A stretch of DNA of 63,888 nucleotides, filler included, from Phoronis australis (lineage: Eukaryota > Animalia > Phoronida): NCBI GenBank assembly GCA_002633005.1. It is 8 parts of 8 records of this genome, joined end to end, with 100 filler letters (N's around TTAATTAATTAA, not from the genome) between each part and the next. Parts side by side here need not be neighbours in the genome. Positions count along the whole stretch, not along the records: positions 1 to 17,236 come from NMRA01000423.1; 7 more parts are not named here. One strand, written 5' to 3'. Both the position numbers and the translations under genes were made by a program. The notes beneath the pieces were generated by a model. That model was not told the origin of the DNA. It searched no databases and worked only from the letters and a program-made list of their open reading frames with translations. Below, piece after piece: positions 1 through 39,690 of the stretch (the stretch's first letter is position 1; each line of letters opens with the position of its first letter).

Positions 1-588
1 GAGAACGGTTTTTGAGCATCGGCAATGCAAGCCGAATATTTCATATTGAGAAAGCACATCTTTGAAAAGAAGAACCAACACTTGTTGGGAACGGTCTTTG
101 TGCGTCGACGGCGCACATTTCTTATTGGGAAAGCCAGATTTTCAAAAATTAATCGCTCAGACCATTTGAGTCTCATTTACCTGCAATTATACTGCTATCA
201 AATGACCGAGCCAGCATTGTTGATACTACGACCGCTCATCGAAATAATGTACACCCACGAAATTCGGACACTAGCGGAAACCCAAATTTGGAGGTCCGCC
301 AAATTCGGACACCACAAAATGATATTTCGCGAGATTCGTCCAAGAATGAATTTTTTCTATTGGAATTAATTTTCAGTGTCCGAAAATCACGCGACTTTAC
401 CGTACATAAATAGCCAGTAACGTGGTGACTAATATGTATGAATATAAGTCTCAGGACAGGATATACACCAAGTAATAAAAATGTAATACTGATTAAGATC
501 CCTTCTTAATAATATGGACATTTAAACAAAAGCAGAAAAGCACATATTCGCAGGCTGCCGGTATAACCTGTCCAAAATGAACAGGTAC

Positions 589-747
589 CAGTGGCGGATT
601 TAAGGGGGGGGGCCAAGGGAGCCATGGCCCCCTTAAAGTTCTCCCATATTCCATTGTGAACCGTTTGGGGTGTGAATTCTGACGGGCAAAATCCTGGCTT
701 TTACTCTGCCTTGGTCCACCCTAACTCAAAATCCTGGATCCTCCCTC
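589..747. mobile_element. Short non-autonomous TIR element (MITE)
   Basis: Starts CAGTGGCGGATTTAAGGGGGGG and ends AAATCCTGGATCCTCCCT, a degenerate inverted terminus with an internal GGGGGCC/GGCCCCC motif. Confidence 0.45.
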
Positions 748-1039
748 AGATACCAATATCCTAAATGCACAATGTCACATGGCATAAAAATAAGATTTTT
801 ATTAGGGCTGCTATGCAGTTACTAAATACTGTGTATCACAATGCTCCACAGGAAGAAGTTCAATACATGGAAACTATATATCTATGAAGTAAAAATATCT
901 ACAAAAATAGTACACAGCCCAGCTATACAGAAGGGCATCCACAGTCTCTCTCTAATAATTATACCACAGAATGTCATTTATACATGATTGCCATTGTTTT
1001 TGAGCGCCACATGAAACAGGCAAAGTCTAGAAATTTTCA

Positions 1040-1850
1040 CTGGAACTATGAAGTGGAAAAGTACTATGCAGTGGATTACATAAATAAGTTTTATGCAGGT
1101 AGAGCAATACCTGTTGAAAAAAGAATTTGTTCAGTTTAAGTTTCTTCATTCTGTGGGTATTGAGCTGTTTGACTGGCCTCGCAGAGATGATTCAGATGAG
1201 AAGCACATTTCGTGTATATTTTATGGTCCAGTAATCTTGAATGGTTGCGGACCATTTTCATTGCCTCATTACAGTGAAATCACAACGTTCCATAAGCACT
1301 TGAACAAAACAGCTAAATTAAACAAGGTTAAGTTCCATGTTCAGAAACTTGGAATTTTGAGACAGCAGTGTTTGAACAAGTTGCAGATGAGACATTTAGG
1401 GCTGTGGCTTATGAACTTTGCAATAATGTAACGTTTACTGCTAAGAAATTCACATGGTACGTCTGTCACGTATGTCCGTCACAGTTACTCGTCTCACAGT
1501 AATTAAGCTGACTGGAAAATTAATAAAGATATCCTCAAAATTTCTAATGTGTTTTATATGGTAAACAATCCACTAAATCACCATTATGATACCAATCAAA
1601 AAGTTATCACATAACACAATTCACAGAAAATTGCAAAGAAAATTTCAAAAAAATCAAATTCTTTGCGTATGTCCATCACACCCCTTTGATGGCATTTCTC
1701 TCTGCTACGCAACGTGATTGGACAAAATTTGATACATACAATTTCAAAGAGACCTACACATTGATATATTAATTATTTTTCTTGATTTAAAATTTTTTCA
1801 CAATTAATCAAAATGTTCTCCGATTGTACATCCGTCACAAATGATTGCCC
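1040..1850 (+). mobile_element. Decayed DNA-transposon right end with a transposase C-terminal-like fragment
   Basis: Frameshifted YYAVDYINKFYAGR / FVQFKFLH...FDWPRRDD followed by subterminal GTA(C/T)(G/A)TC(C/T)GTCAC repeats ending in ...TTGCCC. A related end occurs at ~5840-6220. Superfamily not determined. Confidence 0.4.
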
Positions 1851-1989
1851 ATGTGAACAAGGTTTGAGACATCACTAAAATGACAACTTTTCACCCCCCC
1901 CCCCCACTTTCTAAAGCTATATTTTAGCANAAAGCTATATTTTATCACTTGTCTATAGCTAGCTAGCTGGTTAATGCCTGTTACCTTAC

Positions 1990-2244
1990 CTTCTGTGGAG
2001 GGGAGCCTATGTTCATCTCAGTGTAGTACCCTTGACCTGGCTTGCCATGGAGTTCGACATTGTAGGACATATAGTGTGTACTAGAGTTCATAGCCATGAA
2101 CTCCCTTGGAGCCACGGACTTGCCCATTAGTCCAGAGGCACGCTTCAGGGGCATCTTGAATGATGTGGAGAGAGTCAGAACCCCACAAACAAAGTTGACA
2201 ACCAGCAGGCAAACTTCCAGCTTCACAGGTGTTCTTGGTGCCAT
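1990..2244 (-). CDS. BACE1: First coding exon of a beta-secretase (BACE)-like aspartic protease
   Basis: MAPRTPVKLEVCLLVVNFVCGVLTLST (signal-peptide-like) ... LHGKPGQGYYTEMNIGSPPQK resembles BACE GKSGQGYYVEMTVGSPPQT. It ends at a canonical AAG|GTAAGG donor (1989). An acceptor TTTGTTTCTAG lies at ~2398. Downstream exons were not recognised in 1-1989. Confidence 0.8.
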
Positions 2245-3742
2245 GTCATGTATGGGGTTGACCCCTAATGTAATTGAGGTAATTAATACACAACCTTCTG
2301 GGACGTTTTAATATCCAGTCGCCTTAGCTCCTCTTCTTGGCTCTCATGTGACTGAGATTCATCATGCTCCAAATGCAGCTTTGAGCCAATATGTTACCTA
2401 GAAACAAAATTTAGGCTAATCAGTTATGAGAGATGCAGTTAACTTCAACAAGAACATACTTAACAACGCAGCCTTTCACATATTATGTACGGCATCCAAT
2501 GTCTTGATTTTGGCACTGAAGATTGGCCTCAATTCCTTCAGTAAAATATTTTAAACTCACACAAAATTTCAGTCACAGGCTCAAAAATTTCCCAATTGAC
2601 ATGGATTTGGCATGGTCTCATCGCAGGGCTTTATCCAGGATTTCGAAAATAGGGTGTCCAAAATGGGGTTCCCAATAATCCAGGGCGTTCATGATTCCGA
2701 AAAAGCGTAACCCCCACCCGGCCCACCACCGTTCAGCAGCAATTCCCCCTACACACACACACTCATCGTGTAGCAGCAATCAATGGAAGACTTCAAACAG
2801 ACTAGTCTGAAAATGAATAAAAATGCTTTCAGTATCTAAGCACTCAATTCAACAAGTATTTGTGAATCTGCAGGGACTTATGTGATGATTTAAACCCTCA
2901 CCAATTTAGGACACAGTATGGCTGATACCTAGCTGCATGAAGACTATCATCAAAATATTATACATCTTTGCACCAAAGCATGAGTGCACCCAGCCTAAAA
3001 AAATGGGGGGCTCAAATTTTTGAGAATGTGGACAGATTGTGGACCTTTTACAAAAATTTACGGGTACGTTCAAAGCTATGAATTGTGCACTGATCGAATT
3101 TTGGTAATTCCTGCCTTTTAAGAGGACTTTTGCCTCGAATTCTAATTTTTTCAGAATTTTTTGTTTCTCTGAGGCAGATCTTTTTGCCCACTTCACCAAA
3201 TGAGGGGGGCCTGTTCAAGCTTCCGAGCCCCTCCCTGACAACGGCTGTGTGCGTGTATGCAAGGTAGACAATGACCATAGTCTCTACTGTCGATGTATCT
3301 AATTCTTTCAAACTCGAACAAATGTTCCTGTTATAAAACTTTTTCGTCGAGCAGTCCCTCGTTCAGTTTCCAAAATCAGTAACTCGAAATTTTTAATACT
3401 GCTCGCAGCAGGTGGTATGATGTCATATCTCCTAGCATGCGCAGTGTGAAAATGGCAAGTTACTGATTTTGGGAACTGAATGAGGGACTTCTCGAAGACT
3501 GTCTGATAACGGGAGTATTTGTTCGAGTTGGAAGGAGATAAATACATGAACGGCCTCTCAAGGTGTCTCTCATATTTATAACAATGCGACTTTGATGTTT
3601 TAGTCAGTGTGAGGCATAATTCGCCAAAAATCTTCTGGCATGTGAAGCACGGTGGTTACCAATCTACCATGCAAGGCTGTAGCCTTGGCGCAAAGCTATA
3701 TAGTAAATATACAGCTTTGCGCTGATGTGGGTAAAAACTTAC

Positions 3743-3920
3743 CAGATAAAATCTAACACAAAATTAGTTGCATTAAAAACTACACCCTTCTTTGGGTAAA
3801 CTAAACTATTTACTGGTGTTGGAAAAATTGGAGTTTACTATTATTCGGCACCTAAAGTTGTGTAGCGATCTTTTGCGTTGGCTTTCAGCGCCATGAAATA
3901 TTGCGTCACCTATTGGCCAG
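3743..3920 (-). promoter_or_regulatory. Possible promoter / non-coding first exon of the BACE-like gene
   Basis: Minus-strand donor TCTG|GTAAGT near 3742, plus ATTGG (CCAAT box) and TGCGTCA near 3902-3917. Inference only. Confidence 0.25.
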
Positions 3921-4129
3921 TGTCCTGTTTCCCCGATTCTTTATCCAACTGTTTTTCTTCCACAAGGTTGCGTACATGTCACCACAAATTTTTGAAACCG
4001 GTTGTATTTCGTTACCAGTTTTCAGTATTTTAATACCAGCAAACCGATTTTCACAACAAATTTTCTGCTGCTGCCAATGTCGCAAAATTTTAGTAAAAGG
4101 GGCGTGCACGTGACACGAGCGAACTGTTT

Positions 4130-4240
4130 TCAAAAGGACGATAAACTTTTCACTGTTACAAAAGGTGGAGAGTTACGCAAGAAAATGACGTTCGTTGCAT
4201 TGTTTTTCACCTAAATGGCTGTAATGGGCAAGGTGCTTGT
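4130..4240 (+). repeat. Interspersed repeat, also present at ~23455-23560
   Basis: ACGATA.ACTTTT...GTTACAAAAGG.GGAG..TTA.GCAAGAAAATG.CGTT...TTGTTTTTCAC.TAAA.GGCTGTAA is shared by both positions. Confidence 0.65.
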
Positions 4241-5839
4241 CTTGTAAGTTGATTCCTAGATTTTGCATGCACCCCGTCAAAAGTACTTGCAGTTATAGTT
4301 TACAATGTCATCTAGTTAGTCTTAGTAGAATTCAACTTAATCAAACAGTTGGACCACATAAATGAACTTATTGTTTTTCTGTTGGTACCCAGTCTTAGTA
4401 AAGAAATGCTTAGCTTTTGGGAAATTCAAGACGCAAAAATATTCATACAAAAGAAATCCTAAGGTGCTCTAGAGTATACTAAAGGAATACATGTCAAGTT
4501 GCTATTGCACTGCCGGGAATCAACATGTTATTTCTGTTCTGACCTACTATGCTGTGTTTTGTGTTTAAAAAGCCGATACCGGGAACTTTCAAGTGGTAGG
4601 AATCTTATCACCTACTTTATTGAGCACTTTTGTCACACCCTCACTTGCTGTAGGCACTCTTTTTGTGTTTTTCAGTGTATTAGGTCATTGGGTGGCTTGT
4701 ATGAAATTATGTCATTGCAAATGATTACATTGTCTCATCTTAAATATTTTTGATCCTTCAATCTTTTTAAGAATTAGACTATTTTTTTCTGCTGAGCTTC
4801 GAGGAGATTAAACCGGCATTTAGAAAGGATACAGGAAATTGTTGAAGTCCACAGGACGAACAGACGCAACCAGGAGAAAAATAAATATCTGCTACAATAT
4901 TCTCTGAAACTCATGGATCAATAAATTCATAATTGTGCTTGTGCCTACTATGATGTGATATTATTTAAAGCCTCTCTTTAAATTTGAAAAGAAGACATGA
5001 CTCATGTCATGAGTTAAAGAGCGGGATGAAAACCTAATCATTTTTATCACTAAATAGAAACCAGCATCTGATAACCTTATCATTTTTATCACTAAATAGA
5101 AACCAGCATCTGATAAGTTAGCCCTACATATTCCTAAATCATAATCAATCCTAAATGCAAAAAATATTTTGTTTTCATACAGGAAGATACCGCAGGTGAT
5201 TTGAATCAAAATATGAATGCCAAAAGTTGATGATATCAACTAAACCATATACTTCACACTTTAATTTAAGAAGATACTGAATTCCTGTTACTAATACTTT
5301 AAAAACATCACAGTTATTACTAAAATGGGCATGCATCAGAACCATCGACATCATGGACCAGAGAATAATTTTGTACAAGCTCCAAGGGTGAGTTCTAATT
5401 TAAAAAACAATTCACTAAAATGCATATTTATGACAGTAATTAGTAATTTTTTAAACCTTATTTCACACTTTATATTTTGACTATCATATTTACTTGTTAG
5501 TTTTGAATTAATGTTCTATTTAATGCTTAAAAACAGATTTTCCTGATAACTAACACTTGTCAAATACAAAATGATTATTATTATCATTACCATTGATAAT
5601 GCTTACCCTCTTCAAAAGGAAGTGAAGATTTTAGGTGATTGTTTTATATCTTTAATCAAATGTGTTGAAAAGTTAAAAACCTAGGGTATATTCCTAGTAT
5701 GGCCTTACTTGTGATGATTTCGTGCATTTTAATTAAAAATCATTGAATTAGTGGCAAAAGTCCAATATAGCTTAAATACAGCAAAAGTTTGAATCATTCT
5801 AAATTGACATCTTAGTCACAACATACAATTTAATATTAG

Positions 5840-6220
5840 AAATTCAGAGCGTACATCCGTCACACTAACTCAACTTATATCGAGCTGTCTGACAAAAATT
5901 TCTTAGAAAACATCATCAAAAAATTAGTGTGTTGTACTTTGCAAACATTCCACTAAATCATCATGTAAAACATAAATTGTAACTTAATACAACTAGCAGA
6001 AAATTAACAATAAAATTTTAAAAAATTCAAATTCTCTGCGTACGTCTGTCACACCCCTTTAAAGGCAATTTTCTCAGTAAGATTAAAAGAGAGAGGAAAA
6101 GTTGATACATGCTTTGAAAGCTATTAGTGAGACCTATTAATTGGTGTATTAATTATTTTCCAAGGATAAAACCTTTTTTCACAGTTGATTAAAATGTTCT
6201 CTGTCACAAATACATTTCCC
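5840..6220 (+). repeat. Second diverged copy of the transposon end at ~1460-1850
   Basis: Shared blocks GCGTACATCCGTCACAC, TCCACTAAATCA, AAATTCT.TGCGTA.GTC..TCACACCCCTTT, GAGACCTA and TATTAATTATTTT, ending ...TTTCCC. Confidence 0.6.
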
Positions 6221-8231
6221 ATAGGTCTTTAGAAGCTTCTGTTAAGATGCTCTATTAAAAACATAGTTTCACACCAAAACAACTGCTTTTCGACACAAAT
6301 AATAGCACTGTGTGAATCTGTTGCACAGGGCAGTTCTTGACTGCACAGCTTGGTTAATTAGAAAAGCCCAGTAGTAATGACCTTATCCCACTTCAGCCCA
6401 GTCAATTCTGAGAACAGGTATATGTAGTTACCTAACCCTCTGTGATGTCAGACCTGTGCCTGACAGCTGTGTATTGCAATGGCTATAGGCAGTCAACCCT
6501 CCAAAGTTTTGCTTGCTTCATATGACAATTCTTTTCAACTCCATTTGTTGGCATAACTAAACTGTTTTTTGCCAATGAGATGTAAAGACCAGAGTATCAC
6601 AGATAATAAAGCCTAATACAAAATATTACAGTTTTCATCTTTTCATTTTCAGCAGTGAGTAGGAAGGATATCACCTTTTAATTTAAGCACGTATACAATT
6701 GAAATTTGAGTGGAGGTGGCACTCTCAATGACATAATTACAAGAACACTTGAAATGGAAATCTTCTGAACTTGTTTTTTAAATTTACGTGTTAATCTATT
6801 GAAATAACAATAAACTCAAGGCATCAAGAAATATTACCAGAAGATGCCAATGAACATATTATTTCAGAGGTTCGTTATGGCAAGCTAATTCTACCATGCT
6901 TTGGTCACTGAGTCAAAGAAATCAATGAACAAATCAGAGGACGATTATGATTTAATCCACAGCTCAAATTAAAATCAAATGCTTTCAGTCGGAATTATAT
7001 ATTTGGTTTCTACAGTGAAAGACTTTCAAGGTAGTTGAAGGTTACATCTACTATACATAACTTAAAACTGAAATAATCTCTGTACAGTAAAGTTGATATG
7101 TAAGTCAAAATACCGGTAATCTAATTTCTTTACCAAAACAAATAATTTAGAATGCACAATACTTTAGAACATTTACGCATTATAAACGTTATCCAACATG
7201 ACAAATTTACACGATATGAAAGTGGATGTGCCTATCTATTACCATGGCGACCAGTTGTTTCCTTACATTAGCATTTGACAAGCATGATTTGAAAAAATAA
7301 GAAGTTGCATGGAAAAAGGATTGGAGACTGAAAGCTTCACACTCCAACATGGCCTATTTCTCTAATTAAGAGCGTTTACATTTTTTGGGCCTTGATAACT
7401 TGAATTAAGAAAGCAAAAAGTTACAACGCAAGTATTAAAAGAACGATTCATACGTAAAATTTAGAAAATATAATTATGTTGTGACACATAATCAAACCTT
7501 GAAGCGCAATTGACTTTCAAAGAAAAAAACGATATCAAAACTTTTTCAACTAATTTTAAGCTGAGTGTATGGTCAACTGAATGGGATATTCACACTACAA
7601 TTAATTAGAATATTCCTTATATTTTTTGCACAAAAACATAAACATTGTGCAAAATTTTTTTTTTTTGTAGCAGCTTTCATCAAACTGTATCAAAGTTAGG
7701 TAAACATTCGTCATTTCGTTTCAACCTTTATTGAAAGAATACTCGTGGAAAAGGTGATAACTCCTACCTCTATGTAAAAACAATGTGTAGTCACAAAGAC
7801 AATATGGAGGGAAGCTAGCTACAGAGACGCCTAGGGGTTATAGTATGAACTATCATATAATTCTCTAAAAGTTAAGTCTTCCCAAAGAACATAAAAATAG
7901 CCGATTGAACATGCCCTTCAGTTCAGCATAAGTCGCCATGTCGTCAGTGCCGCTAGACATAAGACAATATGTTCAACGTGAATTTTGAGCACTTTTATCA
8001 CTCAAAAAGTAACATCTGCTTCGCTGAAATCCAATGAAAACTATTGAATCGCTCAGAATAGTAGCTATAGATCTTTCTCTCAATTTACGATGAAAATTTC
8101 ATCATAAATTGTTGGTGAAAATAATTTATACACGGTTTTAAATTCATAACTTATGCCGCTGTTGTCCATGGTGGCCGACCCGATCCAAACAAATGACCCA
8201 AATTTCGCCACCAAAATTGCAATAAATTTGC

Positions 8232-8653
8232 ACTGCTTAACCTGATTTTGATAAAAAAAATTACCAAAAAATTATCACAAAAATGACATTTTCTCCGGAA
8301 CAGTATGTCCCGGGCCAATTTAAACGCTTTTTGCACCACTCTCTTAGTCTCGTGGAGAGCTTTCTCATGATGTATGGAACACGCAGATTTTCTTTTTTTT
8401 TTTTCAAAAATACTGTTTTCCCTAACCTATCTGTATTTTGATGACTGCTTAACCTGATTTTGATAAAAAAAATTACCAAAAAATTGACACAAAAATGACA
8501 TTTTCTCCGGAACCGTATGTCCAGGGCCAATTTAAACGCTTTTTGCACCACTCTCTTAGTCTCGTGGAGAGCTTTCTCATGATGTATGGAACACGCAGAT
8601 TTTCTTTTTTTTTTCAAAAATACTGTTTTCCCTAACCTACCTGTATTTTGATG
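8232..8653. repeat. Direct tandem duplication of ~210 bp
   Basis: ACTGCTTAACCTGATTTTGATAAAA...CCTAACCTA.CTGTATTTTGATGA occurs twice (~8232-8443, ~8443-8653) with a few substitutions. Confidence 0.85.
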
Positions 8654-8742
8654 ATATAGTATAATATAGTCAGTAGTATAATACTATAGTCTTCATGCAG
8701 CTAGCTGATAGCTCAATGCTGCCTGGCTAGCAGGGTTGTGGC

Positions 8743-9263
8743 CTAGTGTAACCTTCGTTTTACCAGTGAGCTCTTACCATCATCATTGCCAATCGAAAGG
8801 TCGTCGTTTAGAGACCCATGCAGGCCGTGGGTTCATTATGCCACCATGCCACAGGAATGTTCGACACCGCTTTCGCGTAGTCAAAAGTTGCTGCAGCACC
8901 TCACGGAGTATCACTCCCTACTAGAACAACAGGCGCTTGAGTTCATATCTGTTCCTAGATCACGACTGACTTCTCCCATTACTGAAAACTTGTACATGGT
9001 TACGAGTCATCGGGAAATTCGAGCGCCTGTGGTCAGAACTGACCAAGCTCTTGATTGATTAATCACCGCCAGAGGTACTTAGGCGGCAGATGGCGCTTCT
9101 GGAATTCAATATGGTGGCGCCCAGGAAATTGAGAATGAACAACGTGAGTCTTGCCTTTTCACCTTATTTTGTGTTGTTATTATGTGATGGAAGTCGGAAC
9201 CTTGTTGCTGGCAAAGGATTAGGGTAATTTTTTGCAATATGTAGTGAAAACAGGAAGTTCCGG
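8743..9263 (+). repeat. 5' LTR (portion shared with the 3' copy; true right end uncertain)
   Basis: CTAGTGTAACCTTCG...AAACAGGAAGTTCCGG matches 16348-16867 with scattered substitutions. Confidence 0.9.
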
Positions 9264-9318
9264 GTCACTATGCTCGTGGTTAACAGCCTCGTTTGGGATA
9301 TATGGGTGACCCTGTTCC

Positions 9319-9394
9319 GGCCCGTATTGGAATATTCCAATACGGGCACGGCCCGTATTGGAATTCCAATACGGGCAGCCCGTATTGGAATAAT
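9319..9394. repeat. Tandem palindromes CCCGTATTGGAA(TA)TTCCAATACGGG
   Basis: Two complete perfect palindromes and a third half, running into the N gap. Confidence 0.85.
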
Positions 9395-9707
9395 NNNNNN
9401 NNNNNNNNNNNNNNNNNNNNNNNNNNNNNNNNNNNNNNNNNNNNNNNNNNNNNNNNNNNNNNNNNNNNNNNNNNNNNNNNNNNNNNNNNNNNNNNNNNNN
9501 NNNNNNNNNNNNNNNNNNNNNNNNNNNNNNNNNNNNNNNNNNNNNNNNNNNNNNNNNNNNNNNNNNNNNNNNNNNNNNNNNNNNNNNNNNNNNNNNNNNN
9601 NNNNNNNNNNNNNNNNNNNNNNNNNNNNNNNNNNNNNNNNNNNNNNNNNNNNNNNNNNNNNNNNNNNNNNNNNNNNNNNNNNNNNNNNNNNNNNNNNNNN
9701 NNNNNNN

Positions 9708-10223
9708 AGTATGGGTACATATAGTTAATTTTGCTAATGTATCTAAAGTGGTGAAAGCCAATGAGGTGGTTGCGATGGTCGGGGGTGAGGTTGATGACCA
9801 CGTGGAGGTGGGTCAAGTGGGGGTTCAGGTTGATAAGGAGGGTGTTCCGGAGCATATTAGAGAGTTGTATGGCCGGTCGGTGATTGATATGTCGGAGGAA
9901 AACGCATTAAAGGTGAAAGAGCTATTAGTTGAATATCAAGATGTTTTTGCCAAGGGGGATTTTGATTTGGGCAGCTTTGAAGCTATTAAACATGAGATAG
10001 ATGTGGGAGATTCCAGGCCTGTTAAGTTAAGGATGAGACGGACACCTATAGAGTTTGTGGAAGAAGAAAGGGCACATTTGAAAAAGATGCTGGAGGCGGG
10101 AATTATTAGAAGGTCAGTTTCGGAGTATGCGAGTGCTCCAGTTATTCTTAGGAAAAGAGATGGGTCGATTAGGTATGCGATCGATTATAGGGAATTGAAT
10201 AAAGTGACTAAGAGAGATACTAC
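9708..10223 (+). other. Duplicated pol segment (second version of 12021-12510), probably assembly-derived
   Basis: Near-identical to 12021-12510 and bounded by an N gap and a single n at 10224. It retains 26 nt (RRTPIEFVEEERAH region) that the downstream copy lacks. Confidence 0.85.
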
Positions 10224-10231
10224 NGTATGCT

Positions 10232-11347
10232 GTGGGGCAAGGATGGTCGGATAGAGAGTGTCTGGATAATTTGATTTTTTGTTTAGAGGGTGCGGCGGGG
10301 GAGTTTTTGACCATGTATTTAGAACGGAACGGCGAAAGTACATATTTTGAGGCTTGCACGCAGTTAGAGAAGAGATTTAGCTCGCTGGGGTCACCAGAGA
10401 TAGTGCAGTTAGAGTTCATGGGTTTAGTGCAAGGTAAGGAGGAGTCGGTTCATGAATGGGGCGATAGGGTGTGGAGTATGGCGAGTAAGGCGTTTAGGGG
10501 GGTGCCAGAGGAATACATGATGAGACAGGCGGTGTTGAGGGTGTGCTACGGATCATGGGATAAGGAGGCAGGGTTGAACGTAGCCATGATGCAGCCAGTT
10601 TCGTTGGAGGAGGCGGTCTTGAAGTTACAGATGCAAACACAGGTAAAAAGGGCAATCTTGGGTAAAAATGGGCCTCGTCTGGCGGGTGATCCACTGAAAA
10701 TTCAGAAAGTTCAAAAAGAGGGTTCTGGGGGTGGTAGTGAGGAGGTCATGGAAAAGATTTTGAGACAGTTGGAGGAGTTGAAGCAGCAGANTGGGCCTCG
10801 TCTGGCGGGTGATCCACTGAAAGTTCAGAAAGTTCAAAAAGAGGGTTTTGGGGGTGGTAGTGAGGTCATGGAAAAGATTTTGAGACAGTTGGAGGAGTTG
10901 AAGCAGCAGATAAATTCTTCTACATCTAGGTCTAGCGGGGGTTGTTATACGTGTGGACAGTTGGGACATTTCAGTCGGGAGTGCGGTCAGAATAGGGTGA
11001 AAGGAGTTCCTAGGGAGGTGCGGTGTCAGATATGTAGTAGAGTGGGTCACAAGGCGGATGAATGTTGGTCGAAATCGGGGGACAGGTCTAGAAATGTAAG
11101 AGAAGGAGGTCCGAATATAAGGTGTTTTGTGTGTGGGGTGTTTGGTCATGTGGCGAGAAATTGTCAGAAGGTGAAGAGTAATAAGAGTATTCGACGTACG
11201 TGTAAGGAGTCCCAGAGTAGTGGAGATGAAGGGAGCGTTGATGGAAGAGAAGATCAGGTGGAAGTACGAAGAAGTAATAAGAGAAGGAATGAAAGTTGTA
11301 GCGGTAGCGGTAGTGGTGCTTTAAACGGCAGGGGATTGGAGAATTAG
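10232..11347 (+). CDS. gag: Gag (5'-truncated by an assembly junction) with three CCHC zinc knuckles
   Basis: CYTCGQLGHFSREC, CQICSRVGHKADEC and CFVCGVFGHVARNC, preceded by a capsid-like QGKEESVHEWGDRV motif. An internal ~120-nt duplication surrounds the n at 10791. Confidence 0.9.
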   Translation: MGQGWSDRECLDNLIFCLEGAAGEFLTMYLERNGESTYFEACTQLEKRFSSLGSPEIVQLEFMGLVQGKEESVHEWGDRVWSMASKAFRGVPEEYMMRQAVLRVCYGSWDKEAGLNVAMMQPVSLEEAVLKLQMQTQVKRAILGKNGPRLAGDPLKIQKVQKEGSGGGSEEVMEKILRQLEELKQQXGPRLAGDPLKVQKVQKEGFGGGSEVMEKILRQLEELKQQINSSTSRSSGGCYTCGQLGHFSRECGQNRVKGVPREVRCQICSRVGHKADECWSKSGDRSRNVREGGPNIRCFVCGVFGHVARNCQKVKSNKSIRRTCKESQSSGDEGSVDGREDQVEVRRSNKRRNESCSGSGSGALNGRGLEN

Positions 11348-11379
11348 GCCGACCTTCAATCCATTTTAAGGGTCTGGTT
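11320..11379 (+). promoter_or_regulatory. Programmed -1 ribosomal frameshift signal (T TTA AAC + predicted pseudoknot)
   Basis: Heptamer 11320-11326 is in X XXY YYZ phase with gag, and the -1 frame is open into pol. After a 6-nt spacer, stem 1 is GGATTGGAG (11333-41) / CTTCAATCC (11354-62) and stem 2 is AATTAGGCC (11342-50) / GGTCTGGTT (11371-79, with G-U pairs). Confidence 0.8.
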
Positions 11380-14300
11380 AAAAGGGCTGAGATTGATGTG
11401 ACGGGGTGGAGAGATATAGGTGTAGTCCGAGAAGAAGATAGTGTGAAGTTGGAGGTAAAAAGACTTAGTGCCGATAAGACGTGTTTTGTGGAGGTGGTGG
11501 TGGGAGGCAAGAAGTGTCAGGCAGTATTGGATTGTGGCGCTCAGGTTACGGTGGTGTCTGATAAGTTTTACAACTCGTTGCCTTGTAAACCTAAGATTGT
11601 TAAAGCGGTTAAAATGAGTACGGCTGGGAGAGATTTGGATATGGGAGGGTATGTGACTGAGATGGTATCCCTGCACATGGGTAGTAAGGTATACGGTAGT
11701 AGGTTATATGTAGCGCCGATTGAGGATGATATGCTTTTGGGGTTGGATGTGATCAGAAGGAATGGTTTAATTTTGGACTTCAAGAAGTTAGTGGTGAAAG
11801 ATGGGAGGCATTCTTGTCGGATATTTAGAGGGCAAGGGGGTGTGGAACGGACTGTTGAAGAGGAGGTGGTTTGTTCAGTTAAGCGGGTGGTGATTCCTCC
11901 TATGTCGGTTAAGGCGATTTGTGGTAAAACGAAGGGGTATAGTCGTAGAGGATGTATTCGGCCAGTCAAAGAGTCAGGGGTGATGGTGAGACAGGAACCT
12001 TGTGTGGTTGAGGCTGGTGAAGTATGGGTACATATAGTTAATTTTGCTAATGTATCTAAAGTGGTGAGAGCCAATGAAGTGGTTGCGATGGTCGGGGGTG
12101 AGGTTGATGACCACGTGGAGGTGGGTCAAGTGGGGGTTCAGGTTGATAAGGAGGGTGTTCCGGAGCATATTAGAGAGTTGTATGTCCGGTCTGTGGTTGA
12201 TATGTCGGAGGAAAACGCATTAAAGGTGAAAGAGCTATTAGTAGAGTATCAAGATGTTTTTGCCAAGGGTGATTTTGATTTGGGTAGCTTTGAAGCTATT
12301 AAACATGAGATAGATGTGGGAGATTCCAGGCCTGTTAAGTTAAGGATGAGACCGAAGGGCACATTTGAAAAGGATGCTGGAGGGGGGAATTATTAGAAGG
12401 TCAGTTTCGGAGTATGCGAGTGCTCCAGTTATTGTTAGGAAAAGAGATGGGTCGATTAGGTATGCGATCGATTATAGGGAATTGAATAAAGTGACTAAGA
12501 GAGATACTACCCCTCTTCCGCTGATTGAGGAATGTATTGATTCGATGGCAGGAAGTAGTTTGTATAGTAAGTTGGATGCTAATTCGGCGTACTATCAGGT
12601 AAAAGTTAAGGAGGGGGATGAACATAAGACTGCCTTTTTGACTAAAGAGGGGGTTTTTGAGTTTGTTCGGATGCCTTTTGGATTGAAGAATAGTGGGGCG
12701 ACATACTCTCGGAGCATGTTTTTGGTGTTGGATGGTCTTTTGTGGGAGAAGGTGATCGCGTTCTTGGATGATATTTTGGTAGTAGGTTCGACGATGGATG
12801 ATCATTTGTCTAATCTTAAGTTAGTGTTGGAAAGGTTTAGAAAATATGGACTTCGTCTAAAGCCTAGGAAATGCGAGCTATTTAAAGAACAGGTTACTTT
12901 TTTGGGTCGGCAGGTTAGAGCGAATGAGCTGTTTATGGGCGAAGAGCATATAGCTTCGGTACAGGAGTGGAAGAAACCTGAGACTACCAAAGACGTGGAA
13001 AAATTTTTGGGCTTTTGTAATTATCATAGAATGTTTATCAAGAATTTTGCAGAGATGGCAGCTCCTTTATACTTGATAACGGGGAAACAGAAGTATGTGT
13101 GGAGTGGTATTCAGCAGGAGGCTTTTGATATGCTGAAGAAGGCGTTAACGTCACCACCAGTATTATCTTTGCCAAATAGGGAGGATCAGTTTGTGCTTGA
13201 TGTTGATGCATCCAATTACGCTGTGGGGGGTGAATTGATTCAGGTTCAAGGAGGGGTGGAAAGAGTAATTGCATATGGAAGTGCGGCGTTAACTAAGGAG
13301 CAGAAGAGATATTGTACTACACGGAAAGAGTTGTTGGCTGTTCTTAAGTTTGTAAGGCAGTTTCGACATTACTTATTAGGGAAGCGTTTTACGGTAAGGA
13401 CTGATCATAATAGTTTGGTGTGGCTTTTGAATTTTAAGGAACCGAGGGATCAGTTGGCACGGTGGATGGAAGAATTGAGCCAATATGATTTTGAAATTGT
13501 ATATCGGTCAGGTAAGGCCCATGTGAATGCGGATGTTTTGTCTAGATTTGTGGAAGAAGATAAATGTGGATGTTATCAGGGGGAGGTCAATGTCAAGGAT
13601 TTGCCGTGTGGAGGTTGTAGGTATTGTGTGAGGGCGAGTCAGAAATGGGCTAACTTTGAGTCGCAAGTTAATGATGTGGTGCCTTTGGCTAGTAGGTCGG
13701 GATCTACCAGGGTTCGGGAAGTCGGAGAGGTTGAAGGGGAGTGGTCAGGGTTATGTATTGAGTGTATGGAAGATTATGTAGTGTTTCGGGTGGGAAATGG
13801 AGGTAACGAGTATACGATGGCGAGACGGAAGGTTCAGGTGAATAATATCTCGGTGCTTGACAATATTGAGGAAGGGTGCTTAGTAGTAGAACAAGAAAAG
13901 GATATTGGATTGAGGAATCTTAGGGAGTGGTTATTACAAGGTACGATGTTGGACAAAGGGGATATGTTTCTACTGAGTAAAGGCGAAAAGAAACTTTTGG
14001 TTGATAAGGATAGGTATCAGATAATGCGAGGATTGTTAATGAAGAGGAATAAGAAGGGGGAACTGGTAATAGTGGTTCCGGAGACATTGAAAGGTCAGGT
14101 GTTGCGTTTGTATCATGTCATGATGTTCCATTGGCGGGGCATCAGGGGGTAGTGAGGACGTTGGCTAAGATTAAGGAAAGATATACGTGGCATGGGATGA
14201 ACAATGATGTTCGGAAGTATGTGGAGGAATGTGTTCAGTGTAGTCTGGGGAAAAAAGCGAGCAGGAAGGCTAGGGCTCCGATGACTCAGTTTCATGCTGG

Positions 14301-15414
14301 TGTTCCTATGGAGAGAGTGCATGTCGATTTTTTAGGGCCTTTAAGCAGGACGGAGAGGGGCAATGAGTATGTGTTGATGTTGGTGGATCAATTTACGAAA
14401 TGGGTTGAATGTGTGCCGTTGCCATCTCAGTCGGCCGAGGTGACAGCTAGGGCTGCAGTTAATGAGTTTTTTAGTCGTTTTGGATGCCCGTTGAATATTA
14501 TGAGTGATCAGGGGGCTAATTTCGAGAGTACGTTGTTCAAGTCTATATGTGAATTGTTGCACATTCATAAGAGTCGGACGACTGCATATCGGCCATCTTG
14601 TAATGGTCAGGTGGAGCGATTTAACAGAACACTGATGGATGCGCTTAGATGTTATGTTGATAAGCATCAAGGGGACTGGGATTTATTTTTACCCCAATTA
14701 GCTGGTGCGATGAGAGCGTCTGTTAACAGGAGCACAGGATTTACGCCGAACATGTTAATGTTGGGGCGTGAGGTAAGTTCCCCGGCTGATTTAGTGTTTC
14801 CGGAGTCGTCCGTGCTGGATGGTGAGAGAAGAATGAGTGAGGTGGATTATGCGTCTAAGTTAGGGACGGTTCTCAGTGAAGTTCATGAGATTGCTAGGAA
14901 TTCTCTTAAAGCTAGTCAGAGGATTATGAAGAGAGACTATGACCTGAGTATTAACAGATTGGGTTTCCAGGTTGGCGAAGTGGTGATGTTGTTGGATGAG
15001 AGGGTTTGTAAAGATCCTAGGTTGTGTAAAAAGTTGATGCCATGTTGGAAGGGGCCGGCTATTATTGTGGCTAAATTGTCAGATTATGTGTTTCGGGTTA
15101 AGACCAGGGATAGGGCAGTAGTGGTTAATCATGATAGGATGAAAAAGTGTAAATGGCCAGAGTACAGATTACCTTGGTGGGTAAAAAAGGTAAGGGATGA
15201 TACGGAAGTGATGGCGAGGTGGGCGGATGGAAGGGTTACAGGTAAATTGTATTGCATTTGTAGAGAACCTAATGATGGGACTTTAATGGTACAGTGTGAT
15301 GGATGTTTGGAGTGGTTTCATGCCCGGTGCATTGGAGCTAATGCGCAGGAGTTGCATGATATGGAAGATTATATCTGCCCTATATGCCGTAATGACGGTT
15401 ATGATTATTTGTAG
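11320..15414 (+). CDS. pol: Pol polyprotein: protease, RT, RNase H, integrase, PHD finger (two frameshifts in this assembly)
   Basis: PR AVLDCGAQVTVV; RT RYAIDYRELN, MPFGLKNS, FLDDILV; RH LDVDASNYAVG, RTDHNSL, HVNADVLSR; IN H...GH...CVQC, HVDFLGP, SDQG, ERFNRTL; PHD YCIC...CDGC..WFH..C...CPIC. Frameshifts at ~12352 (26-nt deletion) and ~14115 (5-nt TCATG duplication). Confidence 0.93.
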
Positions 15415-15415
15415 G

Positions 15416-16009
15416 ATGGCTCAACGTGTGGTCGAAGAATTGACGGCAGCGTTGAGGAGGGAACAGTTGGTCGAGCCATTTAAGGTGATATCGAGGCTTG
15501 TTGAAGGGNAGGCGTGTCAGTGGGCTGGATGTTGTTTTGTTGGGGATGATATTGGGGCACATGTTCGCTTTTGGCATTTGCCGAGGTGTGTTTATAGGAG
15601 GGAGTCTGGTTTCGTGTTGAAGTTGGTTCGTCAGTTGGGGGAGATCTTGGTGGGAAGTGGGGATTTGGCGGTGATTAGGACATGGTTATTGGAAAATGGA
15701 GGGGATTTTGGAGAGTTGGGGGATGCGGATTTTAGGGAGGTTGTGAGGGTTTGTAGAGAGTTAGGGTGGGCGGTGCCGAAGGGTAGGTGCTTGAGGAGAT
15801 CACAGGTGATGTTGTTGTCTTGGAAAGGGGTTGAGGGGTTGATGAGGAGACTTTCGGTGGGACAGTTATGGGATTTGTTGAGGGATAGGCCTTTTTACAG
15901 AACTCAGGGTGGGGCATGGATTCGTGGATCTGGAGGGGAGGAGAGTAATGGGGTTTGTGGCGGTTGCAGTGGGATGAGGGATGGGGTGCTACAGTCTGGG
16001 AGGGAGTAG
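15416..16009 (+). CDS. ORF3 of the Gypsy element (197 aa), unknown function, C2H2-like motif
   Basis: ATG lies 1 nt after the pol stop (TAG G ATG). The protein contains CQWAGC...AHVRFWH and has no obvious signal peptide or transmembrane segment. One n at 15509. Confidence 0.55.
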   Translation: MAQRVVEELTAALRREQLVEPFKVISRLVEGXACQWAGCCFVGDDIGAHVRFWHLPRCVYRRESGFVLKLVRQLGEILVGSGDLAVIRTWLLENGGDFGELGDADFREVVRVCRELGWAVPKGRCLRRSQVMLLSWKGVEGLMRRLSVGQLWDLLRDRPFYRTQGGAWIRGSGGEESNGVCGGCSGMRDGVLQSGRE

Positions 16010-16347
16010 GTGTGTTGAGGACTGTAGTGGTGCTTTCTGTATATATGTTGATTTGGATTATTACATGAGAGTTATTATTTTGATATGGATTTATTATTTT
16101 GATAGGTTTTATTATTTTGGAACCAGGTTAGTGTTTTGTTTTGGAGTATCTATTCGGTGTTGGGGGGTTTTCTTTATGACGGGGAGGTGTATGGTGGGTA
16201 ATATTTACGGATTTCTCCGATGTTGACCGAGTGGCCTCGGTTGAGATTATTGGTTGGTTGAGTGGCCACTCCGGGTCTACTCTTTGGGCGGTTCGGACGT
16301 TCTGTGCTGGTGCTGTGATCAGTGTTCATGCAGGTAGGTATTCTACA

Positions 16348-16867
16348 CTAGTGTAACCTTCGTTTTACCAGTGAGCTCTTACCATCATCATTGCCAATCG
16401 AAAGGTCGTCGTTTAGAGACCCATACAGGCCGTGGGTTCATTATGCCACCATGCCACAGAATGTTCGACACCGCTTTCGCGTAGTCAAAAGTTGCTGCAG
16501 CACCTCACGGAGTATCACTCCCTACCAGAACCACAGGCGCTTGAGTTCATATCTGTTCCTAGATCACGACTGACTTATCCTATTACTGAAAACTTGCACA
16601 TGGTTACGAGTCATCGGGAAATTCGAGCGCCTGTGGTCAGAACTGACCAAGCTCTTGATTGATTAATCACCGCCAGAGGTAATTAGGCGGCAGATGGCGC
16701 TTCTGGAATTCAATATGGTGGCGCCCTGGAATTTGAGAATGAATAACGTGAGTGTTGCCTTTTCACCTTATTTTGTGTTGTTATTATGTGATGGAAGTCG
16801 GAGCCTTGTTGCTGGCAAAAGATTAGGGTAATTTTTTGCAATATGTTGTGAAAACAGGAAGTTCCGG
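16348..16867 (+). repeat. 3' LTR, cut on the right by an inserted repeat
   Basis: Similarity to the 5' LTR stops at GTTCCGG, exactly where CAGGGCTCGACATAACG begins. Confidence 0.88.
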
Positions 16868-17236
16868 CAGGGCTCGACATAACGAGCTGCAGGTCGCATT
16901 TGCGACCTGAAATTTGGAAATGCGAGCTGAGATTTTTGTCAGCTCGTATAAAGTCGCAAAATGCGACCTGGAATTTCCAACGAATGCGAGCTGAGTTTTT
17001 ACACTTCTCAACAGATACCTGGCAAATACAAAGCAGCTCTTGTTAATCCGACCGTTATTTGGTTGTTGCCAAATACAAGTTCAAAAGAACACTAACCGAG
17101 AACAGGCCTCCCGATGACTTGTAAGCAAGTCGCGTGAACATGGGATATGAAGAATCGATCTTTGACGCGTTTCATTGGCTAACACTTTCGGCCACTTTTG
17201 TAAATTCCCGGATTCGCCGAAGAAAGTTTCGGGCCA
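16868..17236 (+). mobile_element. Non-autonomous DNA element with a CAGGG (hAT-like) terminus; related copies at ~40940-41190 and ~43800-43970
   Basis: Shared blocks GCAGGTCGCATT.GCGACCTGAA.TTTGGAAATGC, TTGGTTGTTGCCAAAT, GAACACTAAC.GAGAAC and CCGAAGAAA.TTTCGG. Confidence 0.6.
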
Positions 17237-17336
17237 NNNNNNNNNNNNNNNNNNNNNNNNNNNNNNNNNNNNNNNNNNNNTTAATTAATTAANNNNNNNN
17301 NNNNNNNNNNNNNNNNNNNNNNNNNNNNNNNNNNNN
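17237..17336. other. Artificial contig spacer (44N-TTAATTAATTAA-44N); also at 21797-21896, 23819-23918, 46125-46224, 49401-49500, 59147-59246, 61850-61949
   Basis: The identical 100-nt pattern occurs seven times, and the 12-mer puts TAA in all six frames. Confidence 0.97.
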
Positions 17337-24572: not shown

Positions 24573-24796
24573 ATCCAGGACCCCATGTTGGTGGCTATTG
24601 CAAAAAATTGTATTACATCCATTAGCGACTTACCAAGTTCGTGTCTTGCTTAAGAATATTTATTGTTTCTCGTATTAGATTAAATAGGATGTCTTTGATA
24701 AATAGTTTTGCCAGGTGAGGTGAAGGGAATCTAAGTTCACTATAACATTTTGAAAAATGACTCTCGTTTACTTCATTTTATATTTTGGTGTTTTAG

Positions 24797-27700
24797 TTAC
24801 TAAGGCTCTCAAAGATGCTGGTATTCGCTACGAAGACGTCCAACAAGCGTGTGTTGGTTATGTTTATGGTAAGTCTGTGATGAATGGACATTACTGCTGC
24901 AGTGCAGTTTATGTTGCAACATATGTTCATGTGTTGTCAGTCAAAGTTCAAATCACTCTTTCTCATCTTCACGTTCTTGGAAAATTGTTATCAGATGCTA
25001 TAAATACATCTTTAATAATTTGATGCAAATATAGCTTATATATCACTGATGTAAAATTACAACCTAATAATTTCAGTTGTAACAAGCTGGACATTTTAAT
25101 TTAATATTTTGTTGGAGAATTATTATTTGGAACTATATAACAAGCAAATAGTAGATTGTATTTTTCGTGTTGTCAATGAGATTAATGTCCCCTCGCTTAA
25201 TTTCAGGTGACACCACTTGTGGACAAAGAGCAGTTTATGAGCTTGGCATGACAGGCATTCCTATTTTCAACGTGAGTTTTTATTTACCGTGACTAATTGT
25301 CACGACTTTCGTTCTTCACTGTTGACTGAAGCAGCAGTGTGTGTAACTCACATCTGATACAATGTTGTTGTGTCGTTTGACAGTTTTTGGCTCAGGATAC
25401 AGGGAATAGCAGCACCGGCATTGGATTTTTTTGATATTTTGTGCATTCGAGTATTTTATTAATCCTTTTCACGTGGTGATTTTAATGCCGCCTGAGCTGG
25501 GACGTAATGGAGGTTGAATGTCATGGTTGCGTAAGTCCTCTTTTAAATGCCCCAGTTGTTAAAGGAGGTTCAACCTGCCTTCTGTTAGAAAAAGCAAATT
25601 TTTGACAAGACCAGCCACCGTTATGAAATTGGTCTCAAGTTGTGTCCTAGTCAAAACAGGTGTCATTTCTTGGCTTGGAAAGAGTTGACATTTGATTATT
25701 GGTTGAGACCAGACACTACAAGTTGACTTGTCACGCCGTGTCATTTTATGCACCGAGCTAAGTCTCGAAGAGTAACGATGTCTCAGTTCTTACAAATTAA
25801 AACCACTTCTCATTTGGGTAAGGAACATGTTGTGACCAGTTTTATGATAGTAAGTGGTCTGAATCCAAATTAAGTTACTTCAACGAAACATAATATTGCC
25901 CCTTTAATTAGTACTCGTCAAAATAAATTCCGACTGCTTATAGATGTCCCGAATTCCTGTTGGAGGAAACACGTTATTTGTAGTTATGCTGCATTCTGTT
26001 GCAGTAAATGACTAGATTCTACAAGTTCTTGCTAATCAGTAGTTTTCAAAATATACTAAACACACACAGTATTCTGCCAGACTCCAGTAGTTTTCAAAGT
26101 ATACTAAACGCACTTACACAGTACTCTGCCAGACCGGACTCCAGTAGTTTTCAAACTATACTAAACACACGTACATAGTCATCTGCCAGACCAGACTCCA
26201 GTAGTTTTCAAAGTATACTAAACGCACTCACACAGTACTTTGCCAGACTCTGCCAGACTTGCAGAAAGTTCTTGTAAGAGTTATTATGCTGGTTGGTCAC
26301 AATAAAACTTTAGTCAAACTTTAGTGGCAATTTAATGTGATGTTATGCCTAGCTGCTAATTATTTGCTTACGACTAGATTTGCTAGGTAAACTGTGGCGT
26401 GGTTTTGTTGAGATTTAGCCAATGAAAAGGAAGTGGATATTTAGTCACGGTTTTGTGCATTGAAACTTGCCTTTTCTCTGTTCATTTCCCATTGTGCTCC
26501 ATTGTAAAGGAAGGATACTTGATTTTTAAGAATGAATTTGACTTTCATCCAACTGTCTTGACTAGGCATTCTGGGTCATTTACTTATGGTTTTTCTCCAT
26601 TCATGGATAACTTGTATCTTTCAGGTAAACAACGCATGCGCTACTGGTTCAACAGCTCTGTTCATGGCCAAACAGTTTGTACAAGGTGGCATGGCGGACT
26701 GTGTGCTGGCACTCGGCTTTGAAAAAATGCAGAGGGGATCCTTGGCTGCTACGGTATGTATTGGGATCCCAGTGTGATCTTGAATCACTGTGTTCATTGT
26801 TGGTGCCATTTGTTGCATTGGGTGCCAAATTATCTGACAAAATTCAAATTCATTGTTTTTATGGGCAACAACACATCGGGATTGGTAATGGTGATTCTGT
26901 TTTGCTCTCGGCTGTCGCTATGGGGGAAATTACGCCAGTGCTCAGTGGTTGTGATCAGCAATTCCGGGTCATTTTTATGGTTTTTGTGTTAAATTACCTT
27001 GAAATCATTGTGAATATGAAGAGGGATGGGTATCCCCAACCACATATCCTCACAAGTTGAATAGCAATGAAAGAAAAATATGAAATGCTAAACAAATTTT
27101 TTTAGCGAAGCTCAAAGAATTTTGGCATGATAACAAATGAATACGATATTTGTAAAAAGGAAAAGGGAGGGGAAAAACTTTCAGACACTAGTTTTCATTC
27201 ACACTCACTCAGATTGTATTGCTAATTTTGTATATTGACGAAACATATGAAATCATAATTTCAATTATTCCAGTAGTTTACGAGTACATCTTATTACTTC
27301 TGTTAACATGAATCAGAAAAAGTGTTTTTTGTTGCAATGAAAATTAGCAAGTAATTACAAATATCTTGACACTGGTTTGAAAAAGATCAAACTTTTTGTG
27401 ATTATTTTTTATGCTTACTGAATTTTAATCACATCCATGTCGAGTTTAACGGCCTTCACTCTAGTAGTCGAGCCTGCCCGTAATAACTGTCCCTCAAGAG
27501 ACATTCTCACAGATTCCGTACACTTGGTCTCCTGGTTCCCATTTCATGACGGATCATAAGACCAGTCTGGGCTAAGGCGGTTGAAAACTTTAAGTTACCA
27601 ACAGTTCATTAACGTGGTTCGTGGAAATGGGCATCAAGTCTGAATGTGAAAAAAACAACTTCCTGTCAGTTGCAACATGCTCGCTTATCTGAAAAAACAT

Positions 27701-38400: not shown

Positions 38401-39690
38401 CGTTAGACCCCTTTTTAGATGCAGGTGACGTTCTGTGCATAGGTGGCCGAATTAACTGTGCTAAGATGTCACGTGAGTTCAAGTACCCTGTGATTTTGCC
38501 CCGTAAGCATCATGTTACCCAATTGCTTATTCATGAACAAGTTCAGCACCAGGGTCGTGGTTTAACTTCTTATCAAATACGTTCCAATAGCTATTGGATT
38601 ATTGGCTGTAGTGCTGTTGTTTCACACTTTATAGAGAACTGCGTTACTTGCAGAAAGCTCAGATCTACCACTTAGCGTGCAGAAAATGACTGATTTGCCC
38701 GAGGACAGATGAGAGCCCTCGTCACCTTTTACATACTGTGCAGTTCATTATTTTGGTCCGTGGTATGTTAAGAGTGGTCGTAAGTGATGTTGGCATGTGT
38801 TTTTGTATGTATATCGTCGAAAGCTATCCATATTGAGCTGTGCAATGATCTTACTACTGATTGCTTCATCAATGCATTTCGTCGTTTAGAGGCGTTTAGA
38901 GGCCCAGTTTGACTTTTGCGTTTCGACCAAGGAACCAAGTTTGTTGGCGCTCTAAATGAGCTTAAGACTGCGATGAACGGATGTGATATTGATCAGATGA
39001 AGCACTTTCTATTGAAGAAGGGTTGCGACGACATTGTTTTTCAGATGAATGTACCTCATGCCAGCCACATGGGCGGCATCTGCGAAACAGATTTGTACCA
39101 TTAGAAGTGTACTGTCTTCCATGTTAGATCAAAGCAGCACTCATTAGAGAACTTTGATGTATGAAGTGACTTCGATTGTCAACAGTCGACCTCTGTCGGT
39201 TGATAATCTTAATGACCCATTGTCCTCAGAGCCTCTCACTCCAAACCATCTCTTGACAATGAAATATTAAGTTTTGATGTTGCCCCCTGGCGCATTTAAG
39301 TCGGCTGATATGCACTCCAGAAAGATGTAGAGACAAGTGCAACATTTAACAGATGTGTTTTGGTCTCGATGGAAATCAGAGCATTTGCTGAGTCTCAAAA
39401 AGAGACAAAAATGGACCAAACCAATGACTAATGTTAAGATTGGTGATATTGTTATAGTTAAAGATGATAACTTGCATAGAAGTGAGTGGAGATTGGCCAG
39501 AGTTTGTGATGTTAATCTTAGCAAGGATGGTTTAGTTCGCTCTGCTAGACTGACTGCTAGTGATCCTCGATTGGATGCCATTAAGGGCAGGCGTACTAAT
39601 GGCATTAAGTTGATTGAGCGTCCAGTGCATAAGTTTATTATTTTGCTCAAGAATTGTGACCGATTCATTGGCAGAATAGAGGTATAGTTA
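35410..39690 (+). mobile_element. Degenerate BEL/Pao LTR retrotransposon (gag-pol pseudogene)
   Basis: Pao-type motifs across many stops and frameshifts: GHYEMPLPF, RVVFDCSAK..SLNDYLLPGPNL, CDIEAMFHQ, NFYLDEGL, RALGVHW, SVYDPLGLLAP, TVPRLELTAA, FWTDS, LDPFLD, PVILP, DQGTKFVGA, FWSRWKSE, GLVRSA, ERPVHK. LTRs were not identified. Confidence 0.92.

Follow-up and report, generated by a model that had tools for sequence, protein, structure and literature searches.

Results

A Ty3/Gypsy retrotransposon with an integrase-terminal PHD finger

The window analysed here is a stretch of 63,888 nucleotides of Phoronis australis DNA and consists of nine contigs, with N runs holding the spacer TTAATTAATTAA at 17237-17336 and at seven later places. 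Positions 1-17236, which have their own gap of 313 N at 9395-9707, are alone continuous with the element described below; an Rfam scan of this part gave no match. The element is a Ty3/Gypsy LTR retrotransposon with the domain order gag, PR-RT-RH-IN-PHD, ORF3, polypurine tract (PPT) and LTR (Table 1). It has the PR-RT-RH-IN order of Ty3/Gypsy pol, in which single-frame relatives agree, together with LTR, PPT and primer-binding site (PBS); the 5′ LTR and 5′ end of the window copy are unassembled. Elsewhere in the window, a BEL/Pao remnant was observed at 36858-38675 (E 1.4e-16 for Pfam Peptidase_A17, plus a zinc domain of integrase type), and exons at 24790-26755, on a different contig, presumably belong to a thiolase/SCPx gene, which they resemble by eye.

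Table 1. Features of the retrotransposon and its insertion site in the window.
Feature	Position	Strand	Evidence
BACE-like gene, first coding exon; acceptor 2397, ATG 2244	1990-2397	-	splice join, protein match
Likely empty allele of the insertion site	8743-9259	.	self-comparison, junction contigs
Second copy of a pol piece, 97-98% like 12021-12510	9708-10223	+	self-comparison
gag without its 5′ part; three CCHC knuckles seen by eye, of which two pass Pfam	10226-11347	+	frames, Pfam
pol: protease ~11488-11760, RT ~12434-12913, RNase H ~13100-13486	11314-14152	+	Pfam, frames
Integrase: H2C2 end, DDE core, SH3-like domain, short variable linker	14131-15249	+	Pfam; Foldseek
PHD finger, C4-H-C3, integrase C-terminus	15250-15390	+	Pfam PF00628; solved-structure matches; predicted model
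ORF3, 197 aa, C-x4-C...H-x4-H zinc-type and helical domain	15416-16009	+	profile, alignment, spliced join
Polypurine tract	16181-16187	+	sequence; relatives have the same tract
3′ LTR, 160 bp, TG...CA	16188-16347	+	RNA reads, diverging contig flanks
Non-coding upstream exon of BACE-like gene, minimum extent; donor 16383	16383-16480	-	X4 contig, X5 reads

Four RNA reads extend beyond 16347 into a PBS-like sequence, which we take to be of the tRNA-Leu type, and the flanks of other contigs part from the window at 16348 and 16351. RNA molecule ends map to 16280/16282 in the LTR, likely the start site of LTR transcription. A splice donor follows 16333; in run X5, 20 RNA reads exit the LTR there and enter sequence absent from the window, which would be either the gag leader missing from the assembly or a host exon under the control of a different LTR copy. 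RNA over the interior of the element was thin and mostly sense in two of three runs, and the third run had hardly any. One DNA contig and three RNA reads belong to an internally deleted copy (11184-15704, 4519 bases skipped). The plus strand of 9708-16347 has a G-over-C skew of 0.3-0.6, far above that of relatives (0.0-0.25). The second pol piece at 9708-10223 would be either an assembly artefact or a piece of another copy.

The pol gene of the window copy is interrupted by frameshifts near 12350 and near 14110-14150; position 14131, which the original prediction took as the start of the translation, is therefore no protein start and serves below as the origin of residue numbering. Contigs of run X2 deviate from the window at both frameshift sites, so that the breaks are not common to all copies. 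The catalytic triad of the integrase is intact (D66, D126 and E162), with 35 residues between the last two (D-D35-E), and a GPY/F-type motif, WKGP, lies at 15046 within the SH3-like domain. Foldseek comparison of the predicted integrase model matched foamy virus (E 5.9e-19) and Ty3 integrase (E 1.2e-16).

The finger resembles readers of H3K4me3

The frame 14053-15414 is free of stop codons, and in this one frame Pfam recognised Integrase_H2C2 (E 1.4e-16), rve (3.1e-12) and PHD PF00628, the latter at 15250-15390 (E 2e-9; 37.8 bits, cut-off 24). The peptide of the original prediction, a complete PHD finger in frame with the integrase, is thus confirmed, and both domains pass Pfam. All C4-H-C3 zinc ligands are present, and the predicted integrase model has a pLDDT of ~90 over the finger. 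Searching the window element with Pfam to E 0.1 gave the PHD and no chromodomain; the suggested parallel to chromoviruses stands as an analogy, but the element is not a member of that group.

Among solved structures, the top match of the finger was PHF2 (2e-13), then DIDO, BPTF, CXXC1 and SPP1, and further TAF3 and KDM5. Judged by these matches, the solved structures nearest to it are those of H3K4me3 readers (PHF2, DIDO, BPTF). The fingers of PHF2, DIDO1, BPTF, CXXC1/SPP1 and TAF3 are its best sequence matches and share the cage positions; unlike the retrotransposon finger, those of the PHF2/DIDO1/BPTF type belong to host chromatin proteins. An aromatic cage that includes an invariant Trp and an adjoining acidic Arg2 pocket are given as hallmarks of H3K4me3 readers in PMC3241642. 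The Tyr before the first Cys, the Met in the MVQCD strand and the Trp two residues before the His were all confirmed, and these putative cage residues (Y374, M386, W395) align, with the acidic D390, to PHF2 and BPTF. The cage originally proposed holds for Tyr, Met and Trp; a fourth cage position, which the original prediction did not name, is Asn in the window copy and Tyr in PHF2 and BPTF in the structure-match alignments. Since most relatives have Asp, Trp or Tyr at this position, the affinity of the window finger may differ.

The PHD finger is a trait of an animal clade

A protein search found 591 relatives at E 1e-20. The finger was present in 100 of the best 120 integrase relatives, a ranking that favours PHD-bearing proteins; among the 20 others, 17 stop short of the SH3 end or no more than 53 residues past it, and three have other tails. 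Named hosts are Mytilus, Pecten, Mercenaria, Plakobranchus and Elysia, the crinoid Anneissia and the crayfish Procambarus. In the 90 of these 100 finger-bearing relatives that were parsed by pattern, Trp was invariant (90/90), Met (88/90) and Tyr, Phe or His before the first Cys (88/90) were nearly so, and Asp or Glu stood after the third Cys in 80/90. Five of seven proteins scanned have PR-RT-RH-IN-PHD or RT-RH-IN-PHD in a single frame.

Two checks with less bias than the ranking of relatives, the tree given here and the five-bin search described with ORF3, support the same conclusion. In the RT-RNase H tree (62 rows, a quick version with midpoint root and without named reference RTs), all 14 PHD rows fell on one side of a branch with SH-aLRT 100, nested in a 21-row group that includes two PHD-less TatD carriers. 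None of 15 integrase tails from outside the 14-row set had a PHD. Integrase-PHD fusions, which the original prediction had proposed to search for, therefore recur among the relatives and form one branch. The median pN of 153 pairs was 0.20 for the integrase core, 0.34 for the PHD and 0.56 for the linker at a pS of ~0.8, with synonymous sites near saturation in most pairs; in those 4 of the 10 closest pairs in which it was estimable, omega of the PHD was 0.08-0.16. On these estimates the finger is under purifying selection, intermediate between core and linker. Among the differences listed between the window and other copies, eight of nine single-base changes in the integrase-PHD frame are synonymous, and one further two-base difference hits a variable residue of the finger.

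A host exon captured by chance, or a chimeric assembly, could also place a functionless finger behind an integrase, and the window copy is indeed broken, lies on a draft scaffold and is accompanied by a duplicated pol piece. However, an independent X2 contig covers 14916-15343 with six letters different and crosses the integrase-PHD join, which is therefore no assembly chimera. The G-rich skew of the finger, 0.34 compared with -0.05 in host DNA, matches the rest of the element, and conservation and purifying selection extend over the clade. The original prediction had named a finger confined to this copy as evidence against itself; other copies and the whole clade carry it. Chance capture is hardly credible on these comparisons, and we regard it as refuted. 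The PHD is a conserved and likely functional trait of the clade.

A search of longer proteins with the C-terminal region as query had returned only two KDM5 proteins among 25 candidates, a weak result overturned by the later searches. In viral contigs, a single-protein query gave no match; an alignment query gave nine distant loci, and both eukaryote-type ones were without PHD. The loci L080-L118 show that bacterial bins (Sedimenticola, Thiodiazotropha, SUP05, Rubritalea) contain LTR retrotransposon contigs of animal type in large number, which likely come from contaminating host DNA.

ORF3 and its relation to the finger

The element has a third ORF, which the original prediction had overlooked. 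A zinc-domain profile of the clade, with the window left out, matched the window ORF3 at E 3.4e-5, and the alignment agrees. Neither Pfam PF01026 nor the TatD profile of the clade matched this ORF3. One contig of run X4 shows the LTR donor 16333 spliced to the base before the ORF3 ATG, and the pol stop codon TAG is at the same time the splice acceptor. As with env genes, ORF3 is likely translated from spliced RNA. Of 20 relatives, 14 have an acceptor plus ATG after the pol stop, compared with 267 of 1000 control windows, and a donor-like motif precedes the PBS in six of seven LTRs checked.

The PHD profile, built from 76 rows of the PHD-bearing set described above, matched 20 loci among 139 loci and the window. 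In 16 of the 20, the ORF directly after pol combines the zinc/helical domain with TatD, mostly in 700-1100 aa, and in a few of these it is broken. In the other four, two contigs end <500 bases on, and two close PHD-bearing elements, L006 (1090-2148) and L091, have downstream frames that match neither the zinc nor the TatD profile, possibly another type of ORF3. The PF01026 cut-off was passed by 15 of 22 ORF3 frames scanned. GExGxD, HCF/HSF and ETD, which we take to be the metal-binding motifs of TatD, are kept in 13 of 14 aligned TatD relatives, and the top solved matches of this domain are E. coli TatD and YcfH; in the relatives it is predicted to be an active nuclease. Similar proteins are annotated in Dreissena and Saccostrea. 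The nested position of the window family in the tree suggests that it likely lost TatD and kept the zinc domain.

When five bins were queried with the ORF3 domain, 23 matches and 20 loci came up: 15 with PHD and TatD (11 already known, 4 new), four that start inside ORF3 and one PHD-less sister. One bacterial bin alone had 21 ORF3-domain matches. The model of the zinc domain has a pLDDT of 90.8; Foldseek at E 0.001 found no match for it and the best Z was 2.8, which is no proof of a new fold. An Atlas comparison gave weak matches under its recognition threshold, or none. In five more distant PHD-less loci (L101, L103, L104, L105 and L107) pol is likewise followed by an ORF, which in several of them weakly matches a C2H2 finger; for the short C2H2 ORF3 in L107 a relationship is not supported (probability 0.4).

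The joint presence of PHD and ORF3 zinc domain in those 16 loci would suit a finger that binds another ligand, such as H3K4me2, a non-histone methyl-lysine or the ORF3 product, and acts in regulation or escape from silencing rather than in targeting. Asp, which more relatives have at the fourth cage position than any other residue (39/90), can favour H3K4me2 when in the cage, and some PHDs bind non-histone partners; TAF3, however, reads H3K4me3 despite the Asp in its cage (PMC3241642). As a TatD-type ORF3 also occurs in the PHD-less loci L005, L015 and L097, we consider binding of another ligand improbable, and H3K4me3 remains the preferred ligand.

The element lies in an intron of a BACE-like gene

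The BACE-like exon matches BACE1 weakly (E 0.0012). In a contig of run X4, 16379 is joined to 2364-2393, an exact GT-AG splice from donor 16383 to acceptor 2397; X4, guessed to be DNA, is likely RNA because the contig holds two GT-AG joins. Two X5 reads likewise begin at ~16379, so that one contig and two reads make up the evidence for this splice. The donor is 35 nt from the LTR, and the equivalent exon end in the empty copy is at 8778. The element therefore lies antisense in the 5′-UTR intron of the BACE-like gene, 35 nt from the donor. Placing the copy a few kb upstream of the BACE-like coding exon was thus correct as to the contig, but the splice evidence puts it inside the gene.

The 517 bases after the LTR are repeated at 8743-9259 (501 of 521 columns identical to 16348-16867), and X1 and X2 contigs link that flank to DNA before 8743. 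Depth in run X1 was 4.6 at the LTR-flank junction and 4.7 at the empty junction, values that do not give copy number. Two alleles set in tandem across the N gap are the simplest reading. As the assembled window element has neither a 5′ end nor a target duplication, a local tandem duplication is a possible explanation of the filled and empty sites. If the two-allele reading holds, the insertion is recent and heterozygous. The repeat at 8743-9259 was also considered as the 5′ LTR and rejected: the match begins past the genuine end of the LTR, and in the reads it continues into unique DNA.

The flank has a GC content of 0.46 and a CpG o/e of 0.81, compared with 0.32-0.39 and 0.52-0.66 in 1-8742; two stretches near the window start equal it in CpGs. 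It holds motifs that are presumably YY1-like and ETS-like. An acceptor-like sequence lies near 16587, beyond the mapped part of the upstream exon. We infer that the flank is at or near the BACE-like promoter, with an upstream exon that is perhaps not the first. The proximity to a gene noted in the original prediction is borne out, as the single resolved site adjoins the likely promoter-side exon; as one event, this fits promoter targeting. The printed ends of nine relative loci were mostly collapsed single-LTR contigs and offered no usable insertion sites.

A very high-copy repeat at 16868-17236 follows the exon copy beside the element and is absent after the 8743-9259 copy; related pieces lie at 40904-41187 and 43803-43968. 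At 8989-9031, 43 bases are common to many other transcripts and contigs, which continue on both sides into differing sequence.

Discussion

We propose that the PHD finger would bind H3K4me3 from the integrase C-terminus and that the bound finger would anchor the integration machinery on nucleosomes where active genes begin. By analogy with fingers of the PHF2/BPTF/TAF3 type, the Tyr/Met/Trp cage may grip trimethyl-Lys4 and Asp390 may hold Arg2; the variable linker of 20-30 residues would let the finger reach the histone tail as the core captures DNA, and new copies that land near promoters would find themselves in chromatin that is open and transcribed. Binding to H3K4me3 is predicted with good confidence from the conserved residues. 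A bias of integration toward promoter-proximal chromatin through this binding is somewhat better than an even guess. The broader picture, an old and widespread animal clade that lands at active promoters by its own H3K4me3 reader and carries a spliced zinc-TatD gene, is tentative and falls slightly short of even.

H3K4me3 is restricted to small parts of a genome, and therefore a specific reader should bias the sites of insertion. This, and the position of the one resolved site beside a likely promoter-side exon, stands against a finger that binds H3K4me3 but only boosts efficiency, either by keeping the complex on chromatin or by stimulating integrase as a general anchor on nucleosomes, with no marked site bias. 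We consider such a role rather unlikely, even though the conserved cage and the selection on the finger fit it equally well and loss of the chromodomain lowers transposition of MAGGY and alters Tf1 integrase activity (PMC3350952). Promoter targeting, which we prefer, is confronted with Gypsy-7a_cRei of Chlamydomonas, the one PHD-bearing Gypsy element with mapped insertions, which prefers intergenic DNA; promoters are not stated in the available text (PMC9940879).

Several related systems are known. Chromoviruses (MAGGY, Tf1 and those of plants) are likewise Ty3/Gypsy elements; their histone reader stands behind the SH3-like domain of the integrase and has been proposed as a guide of integration (PMC3350952, PMC3601003). 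However, they carry a chromodomain and the window clade a PHD instead; their mark is H3K9me2/3 of heterochromatin, that of the window clade is predicted to be H3K4me3 of active chromatin; and, unlike chromoviruses, the window clade has a spliced ORF3. Gypsy-7a_cRei, an active element, is likewise a Gypsy LTR element with a PHD proposed to influence insertion, but its host is a green alga, and the available text leaves the reader type unstated and a TatD ORF3 unmentioned; the order RH, PHD, INT in a legend suggests that its PHD precedes the integrase (PMC9940879). REM1 of Chlamydomonas is another PHD-bearing Gypsy LTR element, per a citation in PMC6673714. PHD-bearing Gypsy elements as such were therefore already reported, which answers in part the question of novelty raised originally.

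In animals, Ginger1-9_HM likewise has a Gypsy-type integrase and a C-terminal PHD, but it is a DNA transposon with terminal inverted repeats and without RT, and its PHD follows a Ulp1 protease; it is one of 16 tabulated families (PMC2836005). CopiaMBD of arthropods is likewise an LTR element of animals that has acquired a chromatin reader with a supposed role in directing insertion, but it is a Copia element with a methyl-CpG reader and silent chromatin as its target (PMC6673714). Retrotransposon PHDs are termed widespread (PMC6673714) and are reported in Chlamys and CR1 elements (PMC8557442). Juno and Vesta of bdelloids likewise have an enzymatic, non-env ORF3 in the env position, and ORF3s are typically spliced (PMC5408684); theirs is a DEDDy 3′-5′ exonuclease, in contrast to the TatD nuclease (amidohydrolase fold) and unclassified zinc domain of the window clade.

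In the freely accessible literature, the search found none that describes an animal Gypsy clade whose integrase ends in a PHD, nor any on a TatD ORF3. The word 'PHD' is absent from the main text of the marine Gypsy surveys PMC6238403 and PMC8556966; by word look-up it was not found in PMC13524379 or PMC5890265, and in bioRxiv 10.64898/2026.05.21.726589 it occurs in an acknowledgement only. The clade may already bear a MolGy/PolGy or Repbase name. The animal integrase-PHD clade would be a variation on reader-guided retrotransposons, a kind already known.

Element-encoded readers known so far mostly keep retrotransposons clear of genes, and retroelements that seek promoters usually rely on host tethers. 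If the proposal is true, an H3K4me3 reader within the element itself would open a way to promoters that needs no outside partner and would generate regulatory mutations in invertebrates, shellfish among them. The TatD ORF3, for which the search found no paper, would add a predicted type of accessory nuclease. Since PHD-less sister elements share the same assemblies, a clean natural comparison is at hand. Public annotations label Mytilus copies 'COMPASS component SPP1' and 'BPTF', and proteins of the clade are thus misannotated as SPP1/BPTF in public records.
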